The translations under genes were made by a program, and so were the position numbers. DNA of 64,000 nucleotides from Gammaproteobacteria bacterium. GTDB lineage: Bacteria; Pseudomonadota; Gammaproteobacteria; RBG-16-57-12. The stretch spans positions 76,447 through 140,446 of the forward strand of contig JAFLJP010000104.1 of NCBI GenBank assembly GCA_022712945.1, given 5' to 3'. Below, piece after piece: positions 1 through 46,849 of this stretch. Below the pieces are notes generated by a model. The model was not told the DNA's origin. It saw only the letters and a program-made list of their open reading frames with translations, and searched no databases. Numbering within the stretch: the first letter of the stretch is position 1; each line of letters begins with the position of its first letter.

Positions 1-946
<946 letters not shown>

Positions 947-1332
947 TGTATTATTCCTATTCAAATACTTTTTAACTTATTATTAGTTATATACTTTTTC
1001 GTTATTATCCCGAACATTTCATAAGCCACCACCCCACGCTAATGGATGATGAAAATTTTGTATATTCATTACAAGCTGAGCTTCTATCCCTGATTTATTT
1101 ATCCAAACATTAATTTTTTCACAACGTGAATGAAAACGATACCTGAAATAATTGGGGGCAGAATAAAATAAAATATGGAATTCTGAAAGAAGTGAAGAGG
1201 GTCGCCCAGAAAGTGGGGGAACTAATGAACGAAAATGATCGATTGGCTTTAATTTTACTCTGACCCCAAATATTATTATTCAGCAGCTCGCCCAGTGAGC
1301 CACGCCACAAAAAAACACCTACCCCGGTTGGC

Positions 1333-3141
1333 TTGTACCAATTGGCTATTAGGAATATAATCCAGAGAGGGATTTTCCGCGATGTTATGGATCTATATAT
1401 GGCTAGGCAATATTGGTGGTTGGCGGCTCTATTACCACTTTTTTTAATCGGTTGCCCGGCCCAATCACCAGAAAGTGAATCCGCCGCGGGTGATGATGAG
1501 AGTATGGTCTTCATGGAGACTTTTTCCGGCACTGGACTGCGCACAGCCGCCACTCTGGGCTCCACCTCCCTCGATACCCTGCGCATGGCTCACCAGGACT
1601 TTGCACTGGCTGACTATCGTCGCCTCGCCTTCAAGGAGAGCAATATCATCACCTCTGTGGTGGATACACAGTTACTGTTGAGCATGGTTTCGTTGGGAGC
1701 GGCAGGCACCACCTTGAGTGCAGTGAACAACGCCAGCGGGTTTGTTCTTGATGGTGAACTCCCCCATGCGTTGGTTAACGAGTGGGATCAGCACCTTGCC
1801 GACCAGGCGGGCATCCAGGTGCAGCGCTATTTGTGGGGTCAGGAGCGTTACCCGTTTGCCGAAGAGTATCTCGACAGTCAGGTCAGTTTTTATGGACCGG
1901 AGATGATGGCCTTGGATTTCCAAACAGCTGCTACGAACTCAGCAATTCAGATTAATGGAACCCTGCCTAACCTACCACAGAGCGATTTTATCGATCACCG
2001 CTCTCGTCTGGTGATAGCCCAAAGCCTGGAAGCCAGCCGGACTTGGTCGGCCGAGCTCGACCAGGAGAGCTTCAGTGGACGGTTTGCTGTTGGTGATGGC
2101 CAGCGGCAGCTGGATATGATGCGTTTTCAGGGGTTGTTGAGTATCACCGAGAGTGAAGAATACCGCGCAGTGGAGATTCCACTTGCTGGCCAAGAGCTGG
2201 CCTTGCTTATCATAGAGCCCAAAGTTTCGCTTGCTGCAGTACAGAATAACCTTGATCAGGCGGGCTTTCAAAATATATTGGAGCAACTACGGCTACAGCA
2301 ATCGGAAGTGGTGGTGCCTCTGTTTGATATAAGGGTTGAGTTTCGTGATGATGATGTGGCCGACTTGGGGGTGGCGCTGGTAGAGTCTGATGACGCTGTG
2401 GAGTCCGGCATTGCCCCGGGTTCGAATGTAATCATCATCGATACTGAGATAATGGAAGAGGGAGAGTCCCTGCCGGCCATGGAAGAAGCCTCCGATAGTG
2501 AAGCCAACTTCTATTCAGTGAATGAGGCGGGCTATCTTTATCTCAATGGCCTCAGGCAGTGGGTTGCGGTTGCGGTTACAACGGAGGGTATCTCGACTGT
2601 GGCGGCCAGCGCAGTCGCACATCAAGCAAAGCATAGTGAGCCGGGCTGGTTGTTTGATGGAGGAGAGAGTGACAATCGGCCTGGCCTTGTCACAACTACT
2701 CAGGGTTCTAGCTCCATCCCCTGCTACTATCCGCCTGATCAGCAGCCATTTTTGTTTGTACTCTACGCCAAAACCAGTGGTGTCCTGCTTGCTACGGGCC
2801 ATGTGAGCGAGCCGAAAGGGGAGGAGGTAGCGGCCGATTGGATGGACGATCTGGGTTGGCCTGGGTGTGGTGAGAGCCCACCGGTTAAAATTTATCAACA
2901 CGCTGGCGCTGTGCAGTGTGAATCCAATGGTGTCGATCCTTATACCATGAGGGATGAGCTACTCGGCGCTGGCATCAATGTATTGGATTGGGGCCGGGGA
3001 AGTAACGGGTCTGTCTATATCAGCCTGTGTGGTGTGACAACGGGGGATATCAACTACTTTACTATTCGTGAGCAGGATATTGAGCTGGCCCAACGATTAG
3101 GATTTTCACTTTTATCTGAGCTGGAAAACCCGACTTTATAG
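1333..3141 (+). CDS. Lipoprotein of the serpin (serine protease inhibitor) family with a C-terminal extension of about 110 aa.
   Basis: Lipobox LFLIGC. Serpin-like blocks are NIITSVVDTQLLLSMVSLGAAGTTLSAV, FYGPEMMALDFQ, ALLIIEP, VVVPLFDIRVEFRDDDVADLGVAL, a hinge-like VTTEGISTVAASAVA, and the C-terminal PFLFVLYAKTSGVLLATGHV. The true start may be downstream of 1333. Confidence 0.55.
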   Translation: MYQLAIRNIIQRGIFRDVMDLYMARQYWWLAALLPLFLIGCPAQSPESESAAGDDESMVFMETFSGTGLRTAATLGSTSLDTLRMAHQDFALADYRRLAFKESNIITSVVDTQLLLSMVSLGAAGTTLSAVNNASGFVLDGELPHALVNEWDQHLADQAGIQVQRYLWGQERYPFAEEYLDSQVSFYGPEMMALDFQTAATNSAIQINGTLPNLPQSDFIDHRSRLVIAQSLEASRTWSAELDQESFSGRFAVGDGQRQLDMMRFQGLLSITESEEYRAVEIPLAGQELALLIIEPKVSLAAVQNNLDQAGFQNILEQLRLQQSEVVVPLFDIRVEFRDDDVADLGVALVESDDAVESGIAPGSNVIIIDTEIMEEGESLPAMEEASDSEANFYSVNEAGYLYLNGLRQWVAVAVTTEGISTVAASAVAHQAKHSEPGWLFDGGESDNRPGLVTTTQGSSSIPCYYPPDQQPFLFVLYAKTSGVLLATGHVSEPKGEEVAADWMDDLGWPGCGESPPVKIYQHAGAVQCESNGVDPYTMRDELLGAGINVLDWGRGSNGSVYISLCGVTTGDINYFTIREQDIELAQRLGFSLLSELENPTL

Positions 3142-3203
3142 GCACACAGGCCAGGTTTGAGCCACTACAAAGGTTACTCAACACCGGTCCCCTGAGAAAA
3201 GGG

Positions 3204-3251
3204 GGCAAAAAGACAAGTAAGAGCGGTGTTTTAATAAATTCTACATCCCTA
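3204..3251 (-). repeat. Half-copy of the miniature inverted-repeat element.
   Basis: ggcaaaaagacaagtaagagcggtgttttaataaattctacatcccta is the reverse complement of the element's right half. Confidence 0.65.
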
Positions 3252-3270
3252 ACGCAATATTCAACCGACA

Positions 3271-4734
3271 TTACTGCTCATACTCTGGTGGAGGCTGGAA
3301 ACCTCCTGTTACTGACTCAATGGTGAGAGCATCATCAAGTAATTTTTCATCACACCAACGCTTTCCGACCACCTGCACTCCAACAGGCAAACCATTCACA
3401 ACACCCGAGGGTAAGGCGACAACCGGGCTTCCCGTCAATGAAAAGGGAGTCGTCATACTCACGGTTCCTTCAAGATATGAAAGTTGGTGATCATCCACCA
3501 TAATCGCTGGTGGCTTCATAAACCTGCCTGATTTCCCATGGGGGAAAGCGACACTTGGTGTCACCGGACAAATCCAGACATCCCACTTTTCAAAAAACTG
3601 TTCTAATTTTGAAATCAGGCGTTCTCTTATATTGAGTGCCTCATTGTATCGCTTCCAACTAAAAGCCGTGCCCAACGCAAAAGAACGAAGGAGTGGTTGA
3701 GATTTTGGCAAAAATCCTCTGATCAATGACAAGGGGAGTCGCTCTATAGCCGGCATTCCCAAGCCAACCTCCGTGCCCATTATAATGCCACAGGCGTACC
3801 ATGCATCTTCAAAATCAAAGCCATCAGGAGAGCAGCGTTCAACCGTTATTCCTGCAGCAGTTAACCGCTCGATCGTCGTATCCAGGCCTGTTCTTGTGCG
3901 ACTGCAGATGGGGAGACCTGCAAAATCATCCCACCATGCCACCCGCAACGGGCGAGTCGTTCGAGAGGAAGAGAGAGAAGCACTGGCTGATATTGGAGGA
4001 ACTTCACTATCCATACCATCGGGACCTGAAATAGTGTCAAACCCCAAGCGGAGATCATCAACACATCGTGCGAGTAGACCAAACGACATCAAATGACGTA
4101 CTGAACGCTCCGTATCCGGGAGGTGTGGAATATGGCCTGTTCGAGGGATTCTGTTCTCAGTGGCTTTCAGACCTGCGACACCACAATAAGCTGCCGGAAT
4201 ACGTATTGATCCGGCAAGATCACTACCGATATCCAGAAATGAAAAGTTCATGGCAACTGCGGCGGCACTGCCACCAGAACTTCCACCACTGGTAAGCGCA
4301 AGATTCCACGGATTATTTGTTCGACCAAACAATGGACTCCAGCATTGAAGGTCCCCAGCAAGTTGTGGCAAGTTTGTTTTGCCGAGAACAATCGCGCCAG
4401 CCTCTTTCATTCGCTTAACCACCGTTGCATCATTTTCTGGAATATAATTTTTAAGGGGCGGATAACTACTGGTTGTTCTGATACCTTGCGTTTCAAAAGC
4501 ATCTTTTATCGATATAGGTACCCCAAAAAGAGCTGGCAAATCTTGACCTTGATTCAACCGAAAAGAGTCCATCGCTATAGCCGTATTGATCGCCTTCTCT
4601 TTATCTATCGTCACCATGGCATTGATTGCCTTATTGTAGCGCTCAACTCGACCCAGGCAGGCTTGTACTGTGTCAACAATAGAGACCTTCCCTTCACATA
4701 TTGATTGATTTAACTGTTTCGCAGAGTGATGCAT
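3271..4734 (-). CDS. Amidase-signature family amidase (GatA-like).
   Basis: Glycine- and serine-rich amidase signature GGSSGGSAAAVA. Length of 487 aa is typical of the family. Confidence 0.8.
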   Translation of the reverse strand: MHHSAKQLNQSICEGKVSIVDTVQACLGRVERYNKAINAMVTIDKEKAINTAIAMDSFRLNQGQDLPALFGVPISIKDAFETQGIRTTSSYPPLKNYIPENDATVVKRMKEAGAIVLGKTNLPQLAGDLQCWSPLFGRTNNPWNLALTSGGSSGGSAAAVAMNFSFLDIGSDLAGSIRIPAAYCGVAGLKATENRIPRTGHIPHLPDTERSVRHLMSFGLLARCVDDLRLGFDTISGPDGMDSEVPPISASASLSSSRTTRPLRVAWWDDFAGLPICSRTRTGLDTTIERLTAAGITVERCSPDGFDFEDAWYACGIIMGTEVGLGMPAIERLPLSLIRGFLPKSQPLLRSFALGTAFSWKRYNEALNIRERLISKLEQFFEKWDVWICPVTPSVAFPHGKSGRFMKPPAIMVDDHQLSYLEGTVSMTTPFSLTGSPVVALPSGVVNGLPVGVQVVGKRWCDEKLLDDALTIESVTGGFQPPPEYEQ

Positions 4735-4735
4735 A

Positions 4736-5149
4736 TCAGGCGGTACCCCTTGGGGCCATTAATACCGCAAAAAAACAGAAAAAAGCCATAAAAAGAAAGG
4801 CCACGGGTACGATAAAAAAATACTTTATTGATATGGCCAATGAGATAAGTGACACAATAACATTCACCAAAACCACACGCTTTCGAGGAGTGATAGAGGC
4901 CTCCAGAAGTGATAGATTTAACACACCAAAACCAATTAACAACCCCCCCATCATGAGACTAAAACCCTCATGGAAAAGGTATAAATTTGACTCTGAACCT
5001 GACATTGAAATCGAAAAACTTTTCATCTCCTCTATTATTTTGTCTCTTTCAGGTGTACTCGGAATAAGCATGGATGTCACAATATGACCGATACCGACCA
5101 AAACAAATGACCAACATCCTGCTTTATAAAGCATAGGTAATGAATTCAT
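4736..5149 (-). CDS. Small hydrophobic membrane protein of unknown function.
   Basis: 137-aa ORF with 3-4 predicted transmembrane segments. Its stop abuts the amidase start, which suggests an operon. Confidence 0.4.
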   Translation of the reverse strand: MNSLPMLYKAGCWSFVLVGIGHIVTSMLIPSTPERDKIIEEMKSFSISMSGSESNLYLFHEGFSLMMGGLLIGFGVLNLSLLEASITPRKRVVLVNVIVSLISLAISIKYFFIVPVAFLFMAFFCFFAVLMAPRGTA

Positions 5150-5239
5150 AGGGACTCCTCTCTATTTGCTATGTACGTTTGCGTACAATCAGTATTGTAC
5201 GCTGCCGTACACAATGTCAAGATGACGAAGGAATATCAA

Positions 5240-5790
5240 TGCCCAAACATATTGTGACGAGAGAGGATTGGCTCAACCTGGGTTTGAAATGTTTAAATGA
5301 AAAAGGTAAATCAGCTTTAGCTGTAGAGAAAATGGCAAAATTACTTGGTGTCAGTAAAACAAGCTATTACTGGTACTTTAAGAGACAAAGTGATTTTTTG
5401 CTTGAGCTGGCAGCTCACTGGGAACAAGAGGGGACAAAATCTTATATTGAAGCGTCTAAAAAATATCACTCCGACAAAAAAAAGCTATACCACTTAACAA
5501 AAGAGGTCTTTATACACGGACACAACCTGAACTCAATACGGTTTTGGCGCGATATCTCCCAAGAGAACGATACTATCGACCAGCGGGTTAAAGGGGTTGA
5601 AACTCAAAGAATCAAGTATCTTCAAACATTGCTTACTTCAGAGTTTGATAATAATGAAGCACTCCACCGGGCTGACCTGCTGTATCACTATTTTTTGGGT
5701 TGGAGTGAGCGACATAGAGGCATCACCATTGATGAAAGTGAGTTTCACTCTCTCTGGAAAAATATTCTTGAGCCCATGGTTAAAAAATAG
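5240..5790 (+). CDS. TetR-family transcriptional regulator.
   Basis: N-terminal helix-turn-helix LAVEKMAKLLGVSKTSYYWYFK. Divergent from the membrane-protein/amidase operon. The start is taken at MPKHIV; the ORF is open from 5179. Confidence 0.7.
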
Positions 5791-5904
5791 TAAACACTAC
5801 ACTGGAGTCTGTTGATGAAAAACCCTAATCCATATTAGGAATCAACCCCGTTAGCTACCTAAGAGTGATACAGCTCAATCGTGCACACCAAGCACCATGC
5901 CCAA

Positions 5905-6792
5905 CTACCAAGCATACTCTTCCCGATCCTTATACGGGACTTGAGCCGCCTGAACCAACTTGTCCTTAATATTGATTAAATAGTTTGCCATAAAGTGATC
6001 TTTCACACTTTCATGCCCCAGATTGCCCCAAAAGCTTGCTACTGATTTTCGCTCTGCATTGTGCTCATCAAGATAAACATAATATTGATCTTTCAGCAGA
6101 ATCACCTCATCGCCAAAATGCTCATAGCGACCATGCAGTGAATCCAACAAGGTGACCGGTGGGACCAGCGGCACAAGATCATTTTCATCCACAACCCGCG
6201 TCAGGGGTAAAAAGGCGTAGCGATCAGCCCCTTTTTTATTAGTCACTTTTGGCTGGCCAAAGTTAATGGATGGCTTTACCTGAAAGCCATCTTCATGCAG
6301 GTAGATCATTAACAGCGTCGAAATGGCTGCCCCTAAAGAGTGGCCGGTAACATAAATCGGCTGTTTTTTATCCAGATGAGGCAGTAGCTCTGCATAGATT
6401 TTTATCGTATCTTCATTAAACCCCCGGTGAACATAGATACCCAGCTTGTCGTTTTTCATTGGCAGGTATTCTAAATCTTCCAAACCATTTTTCAGATTGG
6501 CAGTGCCACGTATGGAAACAACCTGATATTTTTTCTGTGGTGCCTGCTCTAGAAAATACTGCACATCGGTATCGGCTACTTGTGCAACACGAATGGTGTG
6601 TGGGAATTTATCTCTGATTTGTGCCTCGTCCATGTAAGCTGCATTTGCCCGCTCGGCAAACCATGCAACCTGATCAAAGTCGATCTGCTTCAGCGCTTGC
6701 ACCTTCTGGTCTTCTCTAAATGCCTGACTGTCACAGGCACTAATAAACAGCAGGGATAACAAGAGAATGGATAATATTTTCATAGTGGCCAC
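5905..6792 (-). CDS. Secreted class-3 lipase (alpha/beta hydrolase).
   Basis: Signal peptide MKILSILLLSLLFISA. Nucleophile elbow GHSLGAA, as in fungal-type lipase_3 proteins. Confidence 0.7.
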   Translation of the reverse strand: MATMKILSILLLSLLFISACDSQAFREDQKVQALKQIDFDQVAWFAERANAAYMDEAQIRDKFPHTIRVAQVADTDVQYFLEQAPQKKYQVVSIRGTANLKNGLEDLEYLPMKNDKLGIYVHRGFNEDTIKIYAELLPHLDKKQPIYVTGHSLGAAISTLLMIYLHEDGFQVKPSINFGQPKVTNKKGADRYAFLPLTRVVDENDLVPLVPPVTLLDSLHGRYEHFGDEVILLKDQYYVYLDEHNAERKSVASFWGNLGHESVKDHFMANYLINIKDKLVQAAQVPYKDREEYAW

Positions 6793-6940
6793 TGTTTTAA
6801 GTTATTGACATCACAATGATACCCACTATCCCCTCCTCTTTTAACCCTAATTTTTTACACACATTAAACACCGGGCAACCCTGGCCTGAGTAATTCCATC
6901 TCAAATACCAATATAAGCAGCACTTCTACAGATTATTGAA

Positions 6941-7777
6941 TTACTCCCTACTCTGCTGCAACAGTAATTTCAGCTCGTTGATATCCTGTTTCAAATCCTT
7001 AATCTCTTCACTCAATTGATGGTGTTCCGTTTGTACCACAGTGGTTATCGCCTCTTTATCCTGTTCATCTTTACCCGCTTGCACACTTTGCATCGCATCA
7101 ATAATAATCGCAATAAACAGATTCAGCATGGTGAAAGTGGCAATTAGAATAAAGGGGATGAAAAATGCCCACGCATAAGTGTGGGTCTCCATCACCGGCC
7201 TGACAATGCCCATGGACCAGCTCTCCAGTGTCATCACCTGAAACAGGGTGTACATTGAACTACCCAGTGAGCCAAACCACTCAGGATAGTCACTACCAAA
7301 CAGCTCGGTGGACATCACTGAAAAGACATAAAAGATGATCGACATCAAACCCGCTACTGAAGCGATACCGGGAATGGCACTCAACAGCGCCTCAGCAACC
7401 ACTCGCAACTGAGGGACTAGTGATATAAGGCGCAGTACTCGTAAAACACGCAACACCCGCAGCACCTCAAGTGGGCCACTGGTGGGAATTAAGGCGATGG
7501 CTACAATCAGGAAATCAAAAACATTCCATGCACTGCTAAAAAAACGCCCCCTAAAAGCAAATAACTTCACACTGATTTCAATCACAAAAATAGTCAGCAC
7601 CACATTATCCACCAAGCGAAGCCAATAACCGTACTGTGCCTCCAGAGCATCTGAGGTCGCGATGCCAAGGGTAATTGCATTTAATATAATCAGTGTAATA
7701 ATCAGATATTGAATCGGTTTCGACTCTACCCACATACCGGCGCGGGTACGCAAAGATTGATCGCTTTTCATGCTCAC
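6941..7777 (-). CDS. Bacterial voltage-gated sodium channel of the NaChBac/NavBac family (single six-transmembrane domain).
   Basis: S4 voltage sensor LRVLRVLRVLRLISL. Pore and selectivity filter FQVMTLESWSM (NaChBac has TLESWAS). S6 is followed by a C-terminal coiled coil (EEIKDLKQDINELKLLLQQS). Confidence 0.8.
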   Translation of the reverse strand: MSMKSDQSLRTRAGMWVESKPIQYLIITLIILNAITLGIATSDALEAQYGYWLRLVDNVVLTIFVIEISVKLFAFRGRFFSSAWNVFDFLIVAIALIPTSGPLEVLRVLRVLRVLRLISLVPQLRVVAEALLSAIPGIASVAGLMSIIFYVFSVMSTELFGSDYPEWFGSLGSSMYTLFQVMTLESWSMGIVRPVMETHTYAWAFFIPFILIATFTMLNLFIAIIIDAMQSVQAGKDEQDKEAITTVVQTEHHQLSEEIKDLKQDINELKLLLQQSRE

Positions 7778-7895
7778 CTCGTTATAAATTTTTCAACTCG
7801 GCGTTATACCATTAACGCACTAAAATAGTGAGTTATTTTTTGATTTCGCCCCACTTATACAAAACTCTCTTCAGCACATTGCTCAAGGGAAAAAT

Positions 7896-8303
7896 ATGAG
7901 CCGTACCTTTAACCTCACTTGCCACAAAAAACCACTACGAGGTGGTGAGAGTGCGATCAATATTGCCCTTGTGGGTATTCCCAATAGTGACAAGAGCACT
8001 CTTTTTGAGGCGGTCTCCAGCACTCAGCCAAGCCACACTGGTACCCAGCAGCTCTATCGCCAATGTAGGTTGAGGTGGGCCTGAATGAGGTTTCTCTTAA
8101 TTGACCTGCCCAGCATTCAATCACTGCATCAGCAGCCGGGAGATGAGCTGGTCACCCTTAAATATCTGCTGCGGACGACCAGCGCCCTCTGGTCTCTCGC
8201 CATAAAAGCCCCGAGCCACCCGCGCTATGCTCCACCGGATGTTATTATTCAAGTAGTTGAGCCAGCGCGCTGGAGCGCATTTGGAGCTAACCCAAGAGTT
8301 TAG
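7896..8303 (+). pseudogene. feoB: feoB-like GTPase-domain remnant. It carries an in-frame stop and a degraded G1 motif, and is truncated by the repeat element.
   Basis: The ORFs 7896-8084 and 8085-8303 are in the same frame, separated by TGA. They encode INIALVGIPNSDKSTLFEAV, a G1-like motif with D in place of the second G, and LLIDLPSIQSL...DVIIQVVE, a FeoB G3-like region. Coding ends where the repeat copy starts at 8301. Confidence 0.5.
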
Positions 8304-8355
8304 GGATGTAGAATTTATTAAAATACCGCTCTTACTTGCCTTTTCGCCCACCCTC
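8301..8355 (+). repeat. Half-copy of the AGGGATGTAGAA-terminated miniature inverted-repeat element.
   Basis: tagggatgtagaatttattaaaataccgctcttacttgcc matches the element core seen at 44284-44334. Confidence 0.7.
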
Positions 8356-8559
8356 TCTGTGATGGTAGCTCTACTTTAGAGGGGCTTCGGTGGGCTTCAG
8401 GGTAAACATCATCTATTAACTTGCTGCACAAAAATCAATAAACTGGGGTTTACTGGAGTCAATGGGGCCACGCTCACCGCCGTTACATTTTGATACAAAT
8501 ATCGTACACGTTGATAACAGCTAGTCGCTACAATCTAGAGATCATCTGAGGTAAATAGC

Positions 8560-9300
8560 GTGCATTTTAATTCATTAACCCACGAAACAGATATCCGAAT
8601 ATTACTGATTGAAGACGACATCCGGCTCTCTACGCTCATACAGGAGTATTTGCAGCAGCAGGCAATGACCGTCACGATTGAACACAGAGGTGATGCCGCC
8701 TGCCAGCGTATCGTATCCGAAGCACCTGATCTGGTCATATTAGACCTGATGTTGCCAGGAATGGATGGGTTGGAAATATGCAAAGCTGTGCGACCAAAAT
8801 ACCCGGGGCCAATCCTGATGCTAACGGCACGGGATGAAGATATTGATCAGGTGGTTGGTCTGGAAATCGGTGCTGATGACTACGTCACCAAACCGGTACA
8901 ACCCCGGGTATTGCTGGCTCATATTCGTGCTTTGTTGCGCCGTTTTCCTGCGCAATCCTCACAAGAAATACCACCGAAAAAGAGCCCTGATGATATTCAG
9001 TATCACCACTTTCGCATCAGTACCACCGCCCGTGAAGTGTGGCTGAATGGCACGGCACTGGATATCACCACCAATGAATTTGAACTGTTGTGGTTACTGG
9101 CCAGCCACGCTGGGGAGGTGTTAACCCGGGACACTATTCTGGATCAACTGCGTGGCATCGATTATAACGGAGTAGATCGTTCTGTGGATATTCGGATCTC
9201 CCGCCTGCGAAAAAAGCTAGGCGACAATACCAGCCGCCCCTTCCGCATTAAAACCATTCGCGGAAAAGGTTATCTGTTTGTCAAAGAAGCTTGGAAATAG
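8560..9300 (+). CDS. OmpR-family two-component response regulator.
   Basis: Receiver domain motif ILLIEDD...DLVILDLMLPGMDG, followed by a C-terminal winged-helix DNA-binding domain. Confidence 0.85.
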   Translation: MHFNSLTHETDIRILLIEDDIRLSTLIQEYLQQQAMTVTIEHRGDAACQRIVSEAPDLVILDLMLPGMDGLEICKAVRPKYPGPILMLTARDEDIDQVVGLEIGADDYVTKPVQPRVLLAHIRALLRRFPAQSSQEIPPKKSPDDIQYHHFRISTTAREVWLNGTALDITTNEFELLWLLASHAGEVLTRDTILDQLRGIDYNGVDRSVDIRISRLRKKLGDNTSRPFRIKTIRGKGYLFVKEAWK

Positions 9301-9309
9301 AGATAAAAA

Positions 9310-10890
9310 ATGGGACACCTTTTTTTAAAGCTCTATTCAGTTTTTGCCCTCGCCGTGATCATCTATTTTATCGGCATATCCAATCTCAACACTATTCTGC
9401 AAGGCCCAATAGAGCACTACTTGAGCGATACAACCCAAGGAACCTTTACCCTACTGGAAAAACGCTTGCAAACAAAAGCCGAAGCAGAGTGGCCGGAGTT
9501 GGTCGATGAACTGAACCAGGGTGGCGGTTACGCGATACGTTTGCTCAACGTTGACTCTCTCACTTTCTCCCTAGCCATGATGGAACGGCTGAACCGTGGC
9601 GCAATGGTATTCACCAATACCGATGACACTATTCACTGTTATAAACGTATCTCCAACAGCCAGTGGGCAGTAGAGTTCCCCTTCGGGCAGAGTGAAACAG
9701 CTGATAGCCAACGCCTCTCCAATAGCACTTTCAACCTGATTGAAATGAGCCTGCGCGAACAGCCTCAAGAGAGTTGGCCAGCCACAATGAGCAACATAAA
9801 CAGACACTTCGAGTTCCCTGCAGTGTTGCTGAAAGAAGAACACATTAGGCTCTCCCCTTCACAGTTAAAGAGTCTGGAAAACGCCGAGATTGCAGTGCAA
9901 AAGACTGGTGATGCTGATTTCCTCTACCGTCACCTAGCGGGAAGCCCCTACGTTATAAAACTGGGGCCGTTTGATGAACCACTCACACTCAGCTACGTAA
10001 GATCCATTACGATGCTGTCGCTCGCCGCTCTGGTGGCGCTGGCTGTACTGCTCTGGGTCTTTCCGCTATGGCGGGACCTCAAACAGCTAAATATCAACAC
10101 CCGTGCCTTTGGCCAAGGCGATTTCAGCATGCGCTCGACACTATCTAAACACTCGATTTTGCGCGCTCTTTCTGAAACATTTAATGACATGACAGACCGT
10201 ATTCAACGTCTGATTTCTTCACATAAAGAGCTCACCAATGCCGTCTCCCATGAGCTGCGAACACCGCTTGCCCGGCTACGGTTTGGTATGGAAATGTTAA
10301 GATCATCTTCCAATGAAGCAGACAGAAAACGCTATATGGCCAGCATGAATGCAGATATTGATGAATTGGATCAATTGGTAGTCGAACTGTTGACCTATGC
10401 TCGCTTTGATCGTGACAAACCAGAATTAAAATTTCAACGCCAAGCCATTAAGCCCTGGCTTGAGACACTCATTCGGCAAACAAAAACTGGGGAAGAGCAT
10501 TTATCAATCAGCCTGAAAACAAGCACAAGCAACCCCAAACATGCTCACTTTGAAGCCAGATTAATGGCTCGTGCGGTGGGCAATCTACTGCAAAACGCAA
10601 AACGCTATGCACAAACCAAGGTCTGCATCACCGTTGCACAAGACAGTCAAAACTATCAGATCATGGTTGATGATGACGGGACGGGCATTCCTGAACATGA
10701 ACGAGAACCTATTTTTGAAGCATTCAAACGGCTCGATGCCAGTCGTGACCGAGGCACCGGCGGTTATGGTCTCGGTTTGGCCATCGTGCAGCGCATCTGC
10801 CAATGGCATAACGGTACCATCACCGTTGAAAATTCTCCGCTGGGTGGAGCCCGGTTTATTATCTGTTGGCCAAAGAGAGACCCGCTCTGA
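9310..10890 (+). CDS. Sensor histidine kinase with a periplasmic sensing domain, HAMP, HisKA and HATPase_c domains.
   Basis: Two transmembrane segments. H-box SHELRTPLARL. Its start is 10 nt downstream of the regulator's stop, on the same strand. Confidence 0.85.
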   Translation: MGHLFLKLYSVFALAVIIYFIGISNLNTILQGPIEHYLSDTTQGTFTLLEKRLQTKAEAEWPELVDELNQGGGYAIRLLNVDSLTFSLAMMERLNRGAMVFTNTDDTIHCYKRISNSQWAVEFPFGQSETADSQRLSNSTFNLIEMSLREQPQESWPATMSNINRHFEFPAVLLKEEHIRLSPSQLKSLENAEIAVQKTGDADFLYRHLAGSPYVIKLGPFDEPLTLSYVRSITMLSLAALVALAVLLWVFPLWRDLKQLNINTRAFGQGDFSMRSTLSKHSILRALSETFNDMTDRIQRLISSHKELTNAVSHELRTPLARLRFGMEMLRSSSNEADRKRYMASMNADIDELDQLVVELLTYARFDRDKPELKFQRQAIKPWLETLIRQTKTGEEHLSISLKTSTSNPKHAHFEARLMARAVGNLLQNAKRYAQTKVCITVAQDSQNYQIMVDDDGTGIPEHEREPIFEAFKRLDASRDRGTGGYGLGLAIVQRICQWHNGTITVENSPLGGARFIICWPKRDPL

Positions 10891-15320: not shown

Positions 15321-15435
15321 AGGGATGTAGAAGAAGTTAGAGTACCGTTATTACGCCGAATTATTGTTCACCCTATCTAGCAGGGTCGGCAAAAAGACCA
15401 GTAAGAGCGGTATTTTAATAAATCCTACATCCCTA
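15321..15435 (+). mobile_element. Full-length long variant (about 115 bp) of the miniature inverted-repeat element.
   Basis: Terminal inverted repeats agggatgtagaag ... cctacatccct. The interior shares ccagtaagagcggtattttaataaat with the other copies. Confidence 0.7.
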
Positions 15436-30846: not shown

Positions 30847-30865
30847 AACTTCTTCTACATCCCTA
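30847..30865 (-). repeat. Terminal fragment of the miniature inverted-repeat element.
   Basis: aacttcttctacatcccta is the reverse complement of the long-variant left end gggatgtagaagaagtt. Confidence 0.5.
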
Positions 30866-42366: not shown

Positions 42367-44265
42367 ATGGCGAGCAGCAATACAGAGAACAACACTTCCG
42401 CCTCAACGGATGAAGATCACCCGGCCTGCACACTGCTGGAACAGATCGTCACGCCCGAACAGCTGCGTGAACTCAGCCCAGAACAGCTACCCACCCTGGC
42501 AGAAGAGCTGCGCCACTTTCTGCTGGAGTCTGTCAGCAAAACCGGCGGTCACCTCTCGTCAGGTCTCGGCGCTATCGAACTCACCATCGCCCTGCACTAT
42601 GTCTTCAACACCCCCAGTGACCGCCTGGTTTGGGATGTGGGCCACCAGAGCTACCCGCACAAAATTCTCACTGGCCGTCGTGAACAGATGGCAAGCATCC
42701 GCCAACACAACGGACTCTCCGGCTTCCCAAAACGAACCGAGAGCTCCTACGATGCATTTGGTGTCGGCCACTCCAGTACCTCGATCAGTGCCGCGCTGGG
42801 GATGGCGATTGCCGCTCAACACGCCAAAAATGACCGCAAATCGATCGCCATTATCGGCGATGGTGCGATGACCGCCGGCATGGCATTTGAAGCACTCAAC
42901 CACGCCGGTCATCTAGATGCCAACCTGCTGGTTATTCTCAATGACAATGAGATGTCAATCTCGCCCAACGTTGGCGGGCTATCCAACTACCTCGCCAAAG
43001 TGCTCTCCGGCAAGTTCTACTCCTCAGTGCGCGAAGGCGGCAAAAAAGTATTTAAAAACATGCCCGCCGTCTCAGAGCTGGCACGCCGTACAGAAGAGCA
43101 TGTAAAAGGAATGGTGGTGCCCGGCACGCTATTTGAAGAGCTGGGCTTCCACTACATCGGCCCGGTGGATGGTCACGATCTCGATACACTGCTCACCACG
43201 TTGCAAAACATCAAATCCCTGCACGGCCCTCAATTTCTGCACGTGGTCACCAAGAAGGGTAAAGGGTATAAACTGGCCGAAGAGGATCCTTGTAAGTTCC
43301 ACGGCGTCACCCCCTTTAACCGCGAGAATGGCGAAAAAAAGAGCAACGCCAAAGCCGGAAAGAGTTACACCGAAGTGTTTGGTGAGTGGCTGTGCGACAC
43401 CGCCACCCAAGACCAACGGCTGATCGGTATCACCCCCGCCATGAGTGAAGGCTCCGGCATGGTTGAATTCAGCCAGCGCTTTGCCGAACGCTATATCGAT
43501 GTGGGCATTGCCGAGCAACACGCCGTCACCTTGGCCGCTGGCCTCGCCTGTGAAGGGTTAAAACCGGTTGTCGCCATCTACTCCAGCTTTCTACAACGGG
43601 GCTACGACCAACTACTGCACGATGTGGCGATACAAAACCTGCCGGTTCTGTTTGCCGTAGATCGCGCCGGCATCGTCGGCCCCGACGGCCCCACACATGC
43701 GGGTTGTTACGACATCAGCTTCCTGCGCTGCGTACCCAACATCAGCATCATGACCCCCGCCGACGAACAGGAGTGCCGGGCGCTGCTCAGCACTGGCTAT
43801 CAACTGGACAGCCCGGCGGTTGTTCGCTACCCCAGAGGCGGTGGCCCAGGCGTTAAAACAGCCGAAAACCTGGAACCTCTCCCTTTCGGAAAAGGTGAAA
43901 TCCGCCGTCAGGGAAAAGGCATCGCCATCCTCAACTTTGGCCCGCTACTGCAAGAGGCACTCCAGGCCGCCGAACAGCTCGACGCCACTGTGGCCAACAT
44001 GCGCTTTGTCAAACCGCTGGATCACACCCTGCTGCGCCAACTCGCCGAACAACACGAAACGTTGATCACCCTGGAAGACAACGCCACCATCGGCGGCGCA
44101 GGCAGTGGAGTAAACGAATGGCTGGCAGCGCAAAACATCCAGCGCCGGGTAATCAACCTCGGCCTGCCCGATCGCTACATCGAACACGGCAGCCGCGAAG
44201 CACTACTCGCCAGCTGCGGTCTTGATGCCCAGGGTATTATCACGAGTGCGCAAAACGAGCTATAA
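42367..44265 (+). CDS. dxs: 1-deoxy-D-xylulose-5-phosphate synthase.
   Basis: TPP-binding [18 protein letters not shown]. 632 aa. Canonical xseB-ispA-dxs order. Confidence 0.95.
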
Positions 44266-44283
44266 TCGCTCTATAGCGCATTA

Positions 44284-44334
44284 AGGGATGTAGAATTTAT
44301 TAAAATACCGCTCTTACTTGTCTTCTACATCCCT
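44284..44334 (+). mobile_element. Compact complete copy (51 bp) of the miniature inverted-repeat element.
   Basis: agggatgtagaa-tttattaaaataccgctcttacttgtc-ttctacatccct. Perfect 12-bp terminal inverted repeats. Confidence 0.75.
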
Positions 44335-44354
44335 AAACTCTTTTCAAAAACAGA

Positions 44355-45695
44355 ATGAATATGTTAAACAAAAAACAGACACTGAAAACACTCTACCAAG
44401 CGCTGAGCGACAGGCCATTAAACTTTGGTGAAGATACCGAGTTGTATGAACCTTACGTCGAAAAACTACCCGGTGGCGATCCTATTCTTGAGTTGAAAAC
44501 GACAATTGAATTCTCTGAATCAGAAAGCCTGCATCTTGTCAGTGGACAGCGCGGCACTGGCAAAAGCACCGAATTACTCAGGCTGAAATACTTATTGGAA
44601 AAAGAGAGTCAATACACCGTATTTTACCTCAACATGCTCGACTATTTATCAGAATCTGAACCAGTGGAGATCAGCGATTTCCTGCTTGCCGCCTCTTCCG
44701 GCCTCGCCGCCCAAGCAGAAGAACGCTATGGTTTAAATTCGCTGCATGAAGGTTACTGGGAGCGCATACAAAACCTGCTCTCCTCCGAAATCAAGCTCGA
44801 AGGCGTCGATGCTAAAGCAGCTGCTGCCGGTTTTAGTGCTACCTTTAAAGCGCGGTTAAAAAAAGATGTCACATTCAAGCGCCAGTTACAGAAAGCAGCC
44901 CAAGGGCACATTGTACAACTAACGACGCAAGTGAATGAGTTTGTCATTGATCTGGTCAGTGCAGTCCGGAAAAAATTAGGCAATCAACAACAAATTGTTT
45001 TTATTGTTGACTCCTTCGAGCAGATTCGCGGCACCAGCCAGAGCGCCCACGAAGTACACGACAGCGTAGTGCGTCTATTTGGACACCACGGTGAAAATCT
45101 GCACCTGCCACAGCTCCATTTTGTGATTACCGTACCACCTTATCTCACCATAGCCGCGCCGGGCATTAGCCGCCTGACTCAAAGTAACCCAGTCATCACC
45201 CTGCCGAGTGTGCATGTAAAAAGCCGCAATGGTCAGCCGGATGAAAAAGCTTTAAAGGTCATGCGCGCCATCGTTCATCGTCGCAGCCTGGGGGCAAAAG
45301 ATATATTCCCCGATCATGCCATTGACCATCTGGCAGCGGCCAGCGGTGGAGATCTGCGGCACTTCTTCTCCATGCTGCGTATTGCGCTGCTAAAAACCAG
45401 CGCAGAGCTGCTGGTTGATTTACCCATCAAGGATCAAGTGATCAAACAAGCCGAAGAGTCTCAACGGCGTGATATGTTACCCATATCAGATGAAGACGTT
45501 CTCTGGCTGGCAAAAGTCCATGCCAGCAAAAAAGCTGAACTACCGAGCATTCAGCAGTTACCACTGCTGGCCCGGCTATTCGATGCCACCTTAATCATCA
45601 ATTACCGCAATGGTGACGATTGGTACGACATCCATCCACTGGTAGAGACCTATGTAACAGAACGCAAAAAAGTACTCGATGAGCGTAATCGCTAA
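44355..45695 (+). CDS. P-loop NTPase of unknown function (AAA+/STAND-like).
   Basis: Walker A VSGQRGTGKSTELLRL. Walker B QQIVFIVDSFEQI. GGDLRHFFSMLR sensor-2-like arginine. No transmembrane segment and no recognisable effector domain. Confidence 0.6.
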   Translation: MNMLNKKQTLKTLYQALSDRPLNFGEDTELYEPYVEKLPGGDPILELKTTIEFSESESLHLVSGQRGTGKSTELLRLKYLLEKESQYTVFYLNMLDYLSESEPVEISDFLLAASSGLAAQAEERYGLNSLHEGYWERIQNLLSSEIKLEGVDAKAAAAGFSATFKARLKKDVTFKRQLQKAAQGHIVQLTTQVNEFVIDLVSAVRKKLGNQQQIVFIVDSFEQIRGTSQSAHEVHDSVVRLFGHHGENLHLPQLHFVITVPPYLTIAAPGISRLTQSNPVITLPSVHVKSRNGQPDEKALKVMRAIVHRRSLGAKDIFPDHAIDHLAAASGGDLRHFFSMLRIALLKTSAELLVDLPIKDQVIKQAEESQRRDMLPISDEDVLWLAKVHASKKAELPSIQQLPLLARLFDATLIINYRNGDDWYDIHPLVETYVTERKKVLDERNR

Positions 45696-46767
45696 CATAG
45701 AACAACCGTGGCGAGAGCTGCGCCAGCACCTCGATTGGAGTGACGACTTCTCTCTCATTTTCTATTTCAGCGATAACATCGTCGCCATGGCACAACTGCA
45801 TCAGCGGGTAAAAAACTACTACCATGGCCGCACTACCCAGCTAACAACCCTCGGCTACCAGGCCAACCCCCATTGGTTACAGCACACCTTAACCCACGTA
45901 CTGCAACAGGGCCACCAGACACCGCTCTGGTTAACCCTAAATCAGGACTACAGCAAGGCGGCAAAACAGCACTACACACAACTGCTATTTCGCTTGAATG
46001 AACGTCGAGATCCGTTACGTCGAGATCATAAGCAGGCGCTGTTCATCGTATTGCCAGAGTCTTTTTTATCCATTTGTCGTGAAACAGCACCGGACCTTTG
46101 GGTAATTCGAGCGTTAAGTGAGACCATTGAACAACATTCAGAAACAGATTCGGGAAAAACCTTAGAAGAGAGAATAAAACAAACCAGCAGCACCCCACCG
46201 CAAACAACCGATTTCCCCTATACAGAGTATCAACAACAGTTGATTCAAGAGTGGCAACGCCTGCGGCAGAAAAAAAGTACCGACAGAGGCGCCTTGCTGG
46301 CCATCAACCGTGCCTTTCAGGAGTTGATAAAACTGAAGCGCAGCCAAGAAGCGCAATTAGCTGCTGCTGATATGCTGAAAATTACCCGTCAGATGGGCGA
46401 GTCACCAGAGGCGCTGCGTGATCTTTCGATCTCGTTAGACAACATTGGAACGGTCGCCCAACAGCAGGGGCGCTGGGGCGAGGCCCACTCCGCCTATGAC
46501 GAGAGCTTGCAACTGCGCCGTCGTCTCGCCTCGCTGCTGGGCGAGTCACCAGAGGCGCTGCGTGATCTTTCGGTCTCGCTAAATAACATTGGAACGGTTG
46601 CCCAACAGCAGGGGCGCTGGGGCGAGGCCCACTCTGCCTATAATGAGGGGCTTCAACTCGCCCGAAGGTTGGCTGGTTTATTACCTGACATTCCAGACTA
46701 CCACTCACTGCCTGGTTATTTTGAAACCGCGTTAGCTGAATTGAAACAAAAGCAGAACAGCCCCTGA
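45679..46767 (+). CDS. TPR-like repeat protein, overlapping the NTPase gene by 17 nt.
   Basis: The C-terminal half holds two near-identical 50-aa helical repeats, ESPEALRDLS(I/V)SL(D/N)NIGTVAQQQGRWGEAHSAY(D/N)E(S/G)LQL. The overlapping reading frames imply co-translation with the NTPase. Confidence 0.6.
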   Translation: MSVIANIEQPWRELRQHLDWSDDFSLIFYFSDNIVAMAQLHQRVKNYYHGRTTQLTTLGYQANPHWLQHTLTHVLQQGHQTPLWLTLNQDYSKAAKQHYTQLLFRLNERRDPLRRDHKQALFIVLPESFLSICRETAPDLWVIRALSETIEQHSETDSGKTLEERIKQTSSTPPQTTDFPYTEYQQQLIQEWQRLRQKKSTDRGALLAINRAFQELIKLKRSQEAQLAAADMLKITRQMGESPEALRDLSISLDNIGTVAQQQGRWGEAHSAYDESLQLRRRLASLLGESPEALRDLSVSLNNIGTVAQQQGRWGEAHSAYNEGLQLARRLAGLLPDIPDYHSLPGYFETALAELKQKQNSP

Positions 46768-46849
46768 ATCAACTGCACCCACCACGCCAAAACCCTGTAC
46801 AATCCACACTCTATTTTTATGCTGTAGCACCCTCTACAGAGGATTTACC

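Follow-up and report, generated by a model that had tools for sequence, protein, structure and literature searches.

The window, a 64,000-nt stretch of a gammaproteobacterial contig, carries two overlapping genes, here termed A and B, which are flanked on the left by xseB-ispA-dxs and on the right by a DEAD-box helicase gene and then a transglycosylase/transpeptidase gene of the class A PBP type (judged by Pfam matches on the orthologue in L001, the closest homologous locus). The initial annotation had described such a pair at this site, and ORF calling in the window confirmed both reading frames, their overlap and the flanks (Table 1). Because the stop of A and the start of B overlap, translational coupling of the two is implied. 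A possible promoter of the pair's own lies at the dxs stop codon, a type of site whose regional count is no higher than expected by chance.

Both A and B are genuine genes. Homologues of A number at least 628 and remain full length down to 40% identity, while the conserved N-terminal domain of B, termed Bn, is represented by 1,899 cluster representatives in an exhaustive HMMER search; word-indexed homologue searches with Bn return only 9–10 proteins, such that the family is visible only by exhaustive searching. GC3 is lower in A (0.50) and B (0.56) than in dxs, the helicase gene and the downstream PBP-type gene (0.62–0.66) or in ispA (0.61).

Upstream of A lies a 51-bp inverted-repeat element with perfect 12-bp arms (AGGGATGTAGAA/TTCTACATCCCT) around a 27-nt spacer. 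It was matched in 0 of 100 shuffles and has an RNA fold z-score of −4.5; half-sites and related copies are located at positions 3239, 8302, 15321, 15423 and 30853 (7 matches vs 0.19 expected). The element is an independent small insertion since it is missing at the equivalent junction in L001 and has TAA on both flanks; no second copy marks the module's right end. The mobile repeat initially placed next to the module is thus present as a complete copy but not tied to the pair, and alignment of the junction rules it out as a module boundary.

Table 1. Positions of the genes, domains and motifs in the window (aa, residues of the respective protein)
Feature	Position	Strand	Remarks
Candidate A-B promoter, TTATCA-18-TATAAT	44237..44266	+	spans the dxs stop codon
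51-bp inverted-repeat element	44284..44334	.	MITE-like member of a dispersed repeat family; adjoins the module but is independent of it
Gene A	44355..45695	+	446-aa AAA+ ATPase (ORC/Cdc6-STAND assemblage): predicted core, lid and C-terminal winged helix
Walker A, GQRGTGKST, aa 64-72	44544..44570	+	G64, G69, K70, S71 invariant in 53/53 sequences
Four-helix insert of ~100 aa, aa 106-208	44670..44978	+	after strand 2 and ahead of the Walker B strand, by AF2-model secondary structure
Walker B, IVFIVDSFEQI, aa 214-224	44994..45026	+	D219, S220, E222 invariant
GGDLR, aa 331-335	45345..45359	+	sensor-2-like Arg where a lid helix starts; G331, G332, R335 invariant in 53/53
NYRNGDDWYDIHPL, aa 416-429	45600..45641	+	winged-helix β-hairpin and following His; Y417, N419, W423, Y424, P428 invariant; model strands 414-418, 422-426
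A stop/B start overlap, 17 nt	45679..45695	+	overlap or gap of a few nt typical of homologous loci
Gene B	45679..46767	+	362-aa partner: Bn, linker and TPR solenoid; ORF; AF2 pLDDT 88; Pfam TPR_12, TPR_10
Bn, conserved N-terminal α/β domain, aa 1-152	45679..46134	+	element order α0-β1-α1-β2-α2-β3-α3-β4-α4-β5; no P-loop
Linker of B, low confidence, ~aa 153-181	46135..46221	+	pLDDT <50 for aa 154-177
Two tandem 48-aa (144-bp) TPR_10/12-type units, aa 240-335	46396..46683	+	~90% identical in DNA; TRF 46394-46662, period 144, 1.9 copies, 90% matches

The ATPase encoded by gene A

A is predicted from its conserved motifs to be an AAA+ ATPase that is catalytically intact and has both a lid and a winged helix. 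The Walker A, Walker B and GGDLR motifs on which the initial annotation had based its call of an NTPase were all located in the protein, and the sequences compared show little or no variation in Walker A, Walker B, sensor-1 T259 and sensor-2 R335. The place of GGDLR coincides in alignment with sensor 2 of AAA+ proteins, suggesting R335 as the sensor-2 equivalent, and weak lid-domain Pfam matches (AAA_assoc_2, Cdc6/ORC lid) cover aa 303–366. The large insert appears to occupy the position of the initiator-specific or HEH insert of ORC/Cdc6 proteins. Outside the catalytic motifs, the most conserved motif of A is that of the winged-helix hairpin, immediately after which H427, in ‘DIHPL’, is present in 51 of the 53 sequences; it may correspond to the MHD-like, nucleotide-contacting His of STAND NTPases.

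In terms of class, A displays the tripartite arrangement of NBD, helical domain and winged helix that characterizes STAND NTPases as well as the AAA+ core, lid and C-terminal winged helix of the ORC/Cdc6 type, including a GDxR-like lid sensor-2 Arg whose equivalence is judged by position. Its best structural matches are Cdc6/Orc1, TnsC, archaeal ATPase_2 and BrxC, all of which score above STAND proteins, so that the latter are not its closest structural neighbours. At the sequence level, A remains under the Pfam cutoffs of the STAND families (NACHT, 25.9 vs 26.7 bits; AAA_16, 22.7 vs 32.6; nSTAND5, 21.4 vs 34), its sole match to the Pfam Cdc6/ORC families is Cdc6-ORC-like_ATPase_lid (E 0.14, 12.5 bits vs 27), and a PDB sequence-profile search with the A alignment gave nothing significant. 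The STAND/AAA+ likeness proposed initially holds for the overall architecture, which resembles STAND/NLR sensor systems, but the ATPase itself has a structure less like that of canonical STANDs than like those of Cdc6/Orc1, TnsC and archaeal ATPase_2. A ends past the winged helix, lacking sensor repeats on its own chain, and carries no fused effector or other extra domain. Apparent N-terminal effector fusions at three loci (L029, L073 and L087) were rejected as Arg-rich ORF-calling artefacts in GC-rich DNA.

The partner protein B

The defining feature of B is Bn, an undescribed domain of ~150 aa. Its invariant residues are F24, L26, N107, E108, R110, P138, D139, W141 and R144. Among the best 150 Bn matches, the domain starts within approximately the first 30 residues with one exception (residue 97, P0164) and never follows an A-sized region. 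Bn has no Pfam match even at E ≤ 5, a PDB profile search with its alignment returned nothing significant and hhalign detected no homology to A (probability 4.8%). Fold searches with B are swamped by its TPR part, and the whole-length Foldseek matches to the clamp-loader subunit δ (1jr3_D, E 1.1e-3) and an ORC subunit (8s0e_C, E 8.9e-4) are weak. The element order in the AF2 model fits a five-stranded α0-(βα)4-β5 core devoid of Walker motifs and of a lid, which hints that Bn may be a degenerate (pseudo) AAA+-like core. The initial annotation had missed this domain. The linker that follows is probably disordered, as judged from its low model confidence.

The C-terminal half of B is a TPR solenoid by fold and passes the Pfam thresholds of TPR_12 (48 bits vs a cutoff of 30.1) and TPR_10, which bears out its earlier description as TPR-like. 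In B homologues, the units follow a strict 48-aa period and number 0 to 12, whereby low counts may partly stem from assembly collapse; a version with 10-12 repeats is found on the Syntrophus chromosome OY762510. Units of the same array share 69% identity, compared with 41% for units of different arrays. Variability, expressed as entropy rather than dN/dS, peaks at positions 12, 15, 16, 19, 22 and 23, which form a helical stripe. The arrays are hypervariable by this measure and evolve in concert.

Neither A nor B is claimed by any characterized family. Scans of both proteins against Pfam, NCBIfam and PADLOC gave generic or sub-threshold matches only: the best PADLOC match was mad8 (E 0.001, 16.7 bits), meaning that no curated defence model was reached, and the best NCBIfam matches (E 0.0034 to 0.015) were far under their cutoffs. 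These profile searches uphold the initial view that the function cannot be assigned to a known system and brought up no housekeeping family for either gene, B passing generic Pfam TPR models only. A search of the literature, non-exhaustive in scope, likewise found no named system with the A-B architecture.

The housekeeping alternative that had been named at the outset, a pilus- or secretin-assembly pair of an ExeA/MshM-type AAA_22 ATPase and the TPR protein MshN, can draw on the TPR repeats of the partner and on a sub-threshold AAA_22 match of A (E 0.0038, 18 bits vs a cutoff of 27). No NCBIfam or Pfam model of ExeA or MshM/MshN reaches its threshold, however, and pilus/secretin (msh/gsp) genes neither adjoin the pair in the inspected loci nor occur among the commonest neighbour families. 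In addition, A has a winged helix as well as a sensor-2 Arg in its lid, and Bn is unrelated to MshN. This alternative is effectively refuted, and the probability left to it is negligible.

Pairing, distribution and genomic context

In 85 of the 89 loci found through A, the gene immediately after A encodes Bn, and one of the four loci without a called Bn is masked by runs of N; reciprocally, A lies directly upstream in 4/4 proteins found through Bn. Clustering of the neighbours within 6 kb of the 89 loci revealed no third conserved gene, the largest neighbour cluster comprising 13/89. A followed by Bn is thus an obligate pair with implied translational coupling, whereas the portion of B past Bn is interchangeable. 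TPR_12 follows Bn in 74 of the 85 loci, and no effector can be recognised in this TPR-only form, the dominant one. Rare modules in its place are SIR2+nSTAND5+TPR (L041), NACHT+FGE-sulfatase (L049) and SEFIR/TIR (P0240, whose gene adjoins an A homologue). For the common form, the initial picture of a module split over two proteins with no effector in sight was accurate.

That the pair is an accessory and not a core feature follows from an empty site (L089) in a very close relative, where dxs and the helicase gene are 96% and 92% identical to those flanking A-B and separated by only 120 bp. In other clades, the pair resides at other sites, for instance between era and recO in Thiothrix, within which it is stable; Trinickia mobilis and Methyloversatilis are, like Thiothrix, culturable carriers. 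Occupation of the same position in all relatives is thereby ruled out, in line with the accessory module envisaged initially. The spread is patchy: representative genomes of 185,579 species yielded 234 matching stretches, which are scattered over at least eight phyla, and the family comprises ~1,000 to 1,900 clusters at 50% identity. Thiothrix also carries a clade-specific AAA_5/DUF5691/DUF5682 string ~4 kb from the pair.

Housekeeping genes make up most of the four closest neighbours in 24 non-redundant loci; the pair is often co-oriented with them in strings, and the neighbours provide no signal of defence-island association. A clear defence neighbour, IetA/IetS, is present in L006 only, together with a VapBC pair. 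The module was absent from 50,697 phage records and from 2.9 million viral contigs, and occurs on 2 of 72,556 plasmids.

A might alternatively be the accessory ATPase of a mobile element, i.e. a TnsC/MuB/IstB-like target selector from a transposon with the nearby inverted repeat as its end. In the 24 loci, the Pfam families that recur most often in the four genes nearest the pair include neither transposase nor integrase nor TniQ, and several of the above observations speak against this origin as well: the lack of a conserved third gene, of the repeat at the L001 junction and of a second copy at the right end, and the fact that the partner of A is a TPR protein. We consider it highly improbable.

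A predicted sensor-switch and its relation to known systems

The explanation to which we give the most weight, at about an even chance of being correct, is that A-B constitutes a predicted split NLR-like sensor-switch akin to the bacterial STAND and ORC/Cdc6 conflict systems, which is self-contained and horizontally acquired. Mechanistically, Bn would dock on A, as BrxB does on BrxC or clamp-loader δ/δ′ beside γ, and the invariant R144 of Bn, at the α4/β5 junction, would sit at the canonical arginine-finger position. The TPR array may bind a protein or peptide ligand via the hypervariable face of helix A, and ligand binding could then be relayed through Bn to control the ATP-dependent assembly of A. 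In the TPR-only form, the output would most likely come from A itself, either by oligomerisation or by DNA binding through the helical insert and winged helix; in the rare variants, it might come from the SIR2 or TIR/SEFIR domain on B. We can do no more than infer a defence role for A-B, since its neighbours are for the most part housekeeping genes and no effector is seen in the common form.

A bolder version would make A-Bn the core of a distinct and as yet unnamed class of prokaryotic immune receptors, with sensor and switch on separate chains and a pseudo-ATPase adaptor that donates an arginine finger in trans. A would then be the executor, polymerising on DNA by means of its insert and winged helix after ligand binding and thus arresting replication with no enzymatic effector. 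We deem this version speculative and rather unlikely.

A reading outside of biological conflict has a better, if still minor, claim: the pair might be a regulatory or signalling module, in effect a split MalT/AfsR-like ATP-dependent switch, in which the TPRs of B sense a cellular ligand and the winged helix of A binds DNA or a partner, thereby regulating host physiology. Like the MalT/LAL/AfsR-type STAND transcription regulators, A-B joins a TPR-like sensor to an ATPase with DNA-binding output, the DNA binding being putative for A. The housekeeping neighbourhoods, the co-orientation with flanking operons, the lacking enrichment in defence islands and the absence from phages and near absence from plasmids all agree with such a role, as does the predicted ability of the winged helix and ORC-like insert to bind DNA, and no separate effector would be needed. 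Yet, the empty site in a near-identical relative, the very patchy taxonomic distribution and the lack of conserved adjacent target genes are at odds with it, as are the recombination of Bn with SIR2, TIR/SEFIR, NACHT and FGE-sulfatase modules typical of conflict systems and the hypervariable, concertedly evolving repeat arrays.

If the sensor-switch reading is true, A-B would represent a sizeable uncurated family in at least eight phyla and would broaden the NLR/STAND design principle by a form that is split over two chains and uses a new adaptor domain. Around its fixed ATPase-adaptor core, both the length of the sensor, at 0 to 12 near-identical TPR units, and the output module on B (none, SIR2, TIR/SEFIR or a full STAND) vary naturally, which will be handy for dissecting the link between ligand sensing and an AAA+ switch. 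The pair also sounds a note of caution for defence-gene discovery, as methods based on defence islands would overlook a system sited among housekeeping genes.

Among known ATPases, A shares the AAA+ core, lid, winged helix and insert after strand 2 with Cdc6/Orc1, ATPase_2 (PF01637) and Tn7 TnsC, whose sensor-2 GDxR motif is found where A has GGDLR. It differs from them in that none of their Pfam families passes the threshold in A, in the much larger size of its insert (~100 aa) and in lacking a replication-origin or transposon context. BrxC, the ATPase of BREX, is a protein of ~1,200 aa and hence far longer than the 446-aa A, and B sets itself apart by its TPR array. In BREX, an ORC/Cdc6-like ATPase is paired with an inactive STAND-like ‘iSTAND’ partner, BrxB, which provides a precedent for the docking of Bn on A (PMC12839542); Bn, however, is not detectably similar in sequence to any PDB or Pfam entry, and PglZ, PglX, BrxA and BrxL were found neither in the inspected gene tables nor among the commonest neighbour Pfam families of the 24 loci.

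Further parallels exist with the MoxR-vWA-iSTAND ternary systems and the ‘constant component plus variable module’ systems (Kaur et al. 2020, 2021; PMC7159879, PMC8195603). Here too, a constant NTPase and a constant adaptor-like component are joined to fast-varying repeat or effector modules, and many host taxa of A-B are, judged by eye, filamentous or aggregate-forming. The core of A-B comprises two genes rather than a ternary set, though, and no EAD or Death-like domain was detected. An iSTAND ternary system was discarded as an identity for the pair, there being no conserved MoxR-type partner within 6 kb at the 89 loci and no vWA called in the inspected loci.

Finally, A-B differs from Avs and NLR-like proteins in having its ATPase and repeats on separate chains joined by a novel adaptor domain, in an ATPase that is structurally nearer to Cdc6/TnsC than to STAND, in a common form lacking an N-terminal effector and in the absence of PADLOC or NCBIfam defence matches and of a defence-island context. 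What they have in common is an NTP-dependent switch coupled to a TPR-type repeat sensor, and the rare A-B variants draw on the same repertoire of SIR2, TIR/SEFIR, NACHT and FGE-sulfatase modules that occurs in Avs and NLR-like proteins (PMC13581612, PMC7159879). Altogether, it is the bacterial immune-receptor systems that A-B, whose function is a predicted one, most resembles.

The gene pair and its genomic site

The initial annotation had described two co-directional ORFs between dxs and a DEAD-box helicase gene, and both were recovered: A, with Walker A GQRGTGKST, Walker B IVFIVDSFEQI and a GGDLR motif, and B, of which residues 250-330 exceed the Pfam thresholds for both TPR_12 and TPR_10. 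The pair is flanked by xseB-ispA-dxs on one side and by the helicase gene, followed by a class A PBP-type transglycosylase/transpeptidase gene, on the other. GC3 is 0.50 in A and 0.56 in B versus 0.62-0.66 in dxs, the helicase and the PBP-type gene (ispA, 0.61). A sigma-70-like promoter candidate spans the dxs stop shortly before A; such matches are no more numerous in the region than chance would give.

Features of the A-B region and copies of the dispersed repeat in the window
Feature	Position (strand)	Size	Remark
Dispersed intergenic repeat family	3239-3250(-), 8302-8313(+), 15321-15332(+), 15423-15434(-), 30853-30864(-), 44284-44334		consensus about TTAGGGATGTAGAATTTATTAAAATACCGCTCTTACTTGTCTTTTTGCC
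Promoter candidate	44237-44266		TTATCA-18-TATAAT, 10/12
Gene A	44355-45695	446 aa	co-directional with B
Gene B	45679-46767	362 aa	17-nt overlap with A
Hairpin CTGTAG-N6-CTACAG	46822-46839		immediately 5′ of helicase Shine-Dalgarno and ATG

A core gene would be expected at this same position in all relatives. Yet a metagenome contig (L089) with dxs and helicase at 96% and 92% amino acid identity has just 120 bp between them and lacks A-B, whereas the closest genome (L001; 93% and 91%) and an independent metagenome contig (L137) carry the pair, which is accessory, as initially proposed. In the junction alignment, filled and empty sites diverge from within the last dxs codons, and both keep the helicase leader including the hairpin; because the latter is conserved in L089 and L001 irrespective of A-B, it probably serves as a leader structure regulating the helicase gene. 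Elsewhere, the pair occupies the era/recO interval (Thiothrix), sites next to VapBC and IetAS (Syntrophorhabdaceae) and unrelated metabolic contexts. Altogether, a survey of 185,579 species through their representative genomes yielded 234 matching stretches, spanning Gamma-, Beta- and Deltaproteobacteria, Nitrospirota, Planctomycetota, Acidobacteriota, Gemmatimonadota and Myxococcota.

The inverted repeat reported next to the pair is indeed adjacent, as a 51-bp element with perfect 12-bp inverted arms (0 matches in 100 shuffles), but it does not delimit the module: it is missing from the left junction of L001, which can otherwise be aligned, and in the window TAA borders it at either end; it is thus an independent MITE-like insertion. 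Within its dispersed family, only this copy has the perfect 12-bp inverted repeat, the remaining ones having only the 5′ portion (~45 bp). The 15321 and 15423 copies face each other and together span 114 bp between their outer ends, resembling a small MITE.

An AAA+ ATPase and its obligate partner

Profile searches assigned the pair to no known family. A gave only generic sub-threshold Pfam matches (NACHT at 25.9 bits against a cutoff of 26.7, AAA_16, nSTAND5, ATPase_2 and AAA_22), PADLOC and NCBIfam scans of A and B returned nothing near cutoffs, and PDB sequence-profile searches with A and the N-terminal domain of B (Bn) were empty. The chance that A-B is the ExeA/MshM-MshN pair, named at the outset as a housekeeping alternative, appears almost negligible.

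A confident AlphaFold2 model of A built on 53 homologues (pLDDT 92.7, pTM 0.91) comprises an AAA+ core, a lid domain, a C-terminal winged helix and, following strand 2, a four-helix insert of ~100 residues (aa 106-208). Several catalytic residues vary little or not at all across 53 sequences: G64, G69, K70 and S71 of Walker A, D219 and E222 of Walker B, T259 (sensor-1 position) and R335 of GGDLR (sensor-2 position). A, a winged-helix AAA+ ATPase, is intact and, because its catalytic positions are so conserved, looks like an active enzyme. The winged-helix hairpin NYRNGDDWYDIHPL is its most conserved noncatalytic motif; R273, its own arginine-finger candidate, is found in just 41 of the 53 sequences. 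A falls within the ORC/Cdc6-STAND assemblage, closer to the ORC/Cdc6 side.

In 85 of the 89 loci found through A, a Bn ORF comes directly after A in the same orientation, most often with an overlap of a few nucleotides; the exceptions are one locus masked by N runs, two with another partner and one without a partner. Conversely, an exhaustive HMMER search with Bn yielded 1,899 representatives clustered at 50% identity, 1,015 of which had E ≤ 1e-10. Among the 150 best listed, Bn begins by about residue 30 in every protein except one, and in none does it stand behind an A-sized region. All four Bn proteins looked up have an A-family gene immediately upstream (4/4). A and B form a pair that is obligate and coupled in translation. 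When all genes within 6 kb of the pair were clustered across the 89 loci, no third conserved gene emerged, the largest cluster occurring in 13/89 loci, on either side and either strand. That A is a transposon-type ATPase is highly unlikely.

Downstream of A in L068 (4476-6407) and L076 (4383-7142) lies a non-Bn protein with a hydrophobic, probably membrane-spanning N-terminus; these two, combining TM with TPR_12 repeats (Ca. Electrothrix) or with NACHT and FGE-sulfatase (Parabeggiatoa), may be alternative partners. The MAG JANOTC01 holds two separate A-B pairs (L053, L062), and therefore paralogous copies can coexist.

Constant head and variable tail of B

Alignment of B with genes downstream of A homologues resolves three parts: the conserved domain Bn of ~150 residues, a variable linker, and a tandem array of 48-residue TPR_10/12-type units with a conserved EWxRL helix in front of it. 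Bn is the constant head of B, and the tail is variable. Invariant in Bn are F24, L26, N107, E108, R110, P138, D139, W141 and R144. No Pfam model matched the 55 Bn sequences even at E ≤ 5, and hhalign of Bn against A was negative; the sole fold-level hint comes from Foldseek, with weak matches over the whole length to the clamp-loader delta subunit and to an ORC subunit, both AAA+-type subunits with poor or absent ATPase activity. Bn may therefore be a pseudo-AAA+ domain. BrxB, partner of the ORC/Cdc6-like BrxC, has been described as pseudo-AAA+-type (PMC12839542).

Complete B ORFs contain 0 to 12 TPR units, with 10-12 on long-read chromosomes. The window's B has two (90% DNA identity) and L001 eight, while B in L137 equals the window's in length and adjoins a 96% identical helicase fragment (24 residues); short arrays from short-read assemblies could be collapsed. 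In L002, L003 and L004 (about 9325-10584), the A protein is identical and B is called as 265, 274 or 419 aa, reflecting either true repeat-number polymorphism or assembly collapse and frameshift of near-identical 144-bp units. In 43 arrays of at least five units, the period hardly ever departs from 48 residues, and unit identity is 69% inside arrays versus 41% between them. The positions varying most inside arrays (12, 15, 16, 19, 22, 23) line up along helix A as a stripe with i, i+3/4, i+7 spacing, a pattern that, as an entropy measure and not a selection test, fits concerted evolution with a diversifying binding face. This combination has been reported in repeats of fungal and bacterial NLRs.

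Beyond Bn, B is interchangeable. Of 85 longer Bn proteins, 74 have TPR_12; in rare variants, Bn is joined to SIR2, nSTAND5 and TPR in L041, to NACHT and FGE-sulfatase in L049, and to an unassigned region and SEFIR/TIR in P0240, whose gene overlaps by 4 nt with an A homologue (L139; 39% identity to the window's A); in P0182, 420 residues beyond Bn have no Pfam match. SIR2, TIR, NACHT and FGE-sulfatase domains are typical of prokaryotic conflict systems (PMC7159879, PMC8195603, PMC13581612), and their association with Bn is the strongest argument for placing A-B among them. Directly upstream of A in L041, an Acidobacteriota locus, lies a 3,245-aa protein (2-9739) with 19 DUF11 repeats plus Cna-B, CARDB-like and other Ig-like domains.

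A possible conflict system or regulatory switch

We favour, with middling confidence, an NLR-like conflict system. Bn would dock onto A as a pseudo-ATPase subunit, its invariant R144 being predicted at the alpha4/beta5 junction, the canonical arginine-finger position; the TPR face would bind a ligand, and binding would gate ATP-dependent assembly of A. In the common form, A's insert and winged helix might deliver the output by acting on DNA or a partner; in the variants, SIR2 or TIR domains might do so.

Three observations count against a defence role. First, housekeeping families dominate the two nearest genes per side at 24 non-redundant loci; a clear defence neighbour (IetA/IetS) occurs at L006 alone, and the remaining PADLOC neighbour matches look like generic helicase-type ones. 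Second, phage records and viral contigs lack A-B, and 2/72,556 plasmids carry it. Third, the dominant A-B form has no recognisable effector. A regulatory switch outside conflict is a less likely but plausible alternative.

On a Syntrophorhabdaceae chromosome (L006/L025; 7185-7777, 12056-15635), VapBC toxin-antitoxin and an S8 peptidase/AAA ATPase, matching PADLOC IetS/IetA, flank the pair. In one plasmid match, Acidisarcina polymorpha pACPOL1 (L141; 14252-15448 of the record), the neighbourhood of the A homologue and a TPR gene encodes a CHAT-domain protein, a further TPR protein, an LRR protein, an IS6 transposase and an integrase.

A literature search, whose coverage cannot be exhaustive, found no named equivalent of A-B. 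The likeness to STAND/AAA+ defence drawn initially holds for the architecture; STAND membership is rejected by profile and by nearest structure, the ORC/Cdc6 side being closer, and the pair belongs to neither BREX, the iSTAND ternary system nor Avs. As an NLR-like conflict system, A-B would work like all of these, but it differs from them in what is new here, its split architecture and the undescribed adaptor domain Bn.
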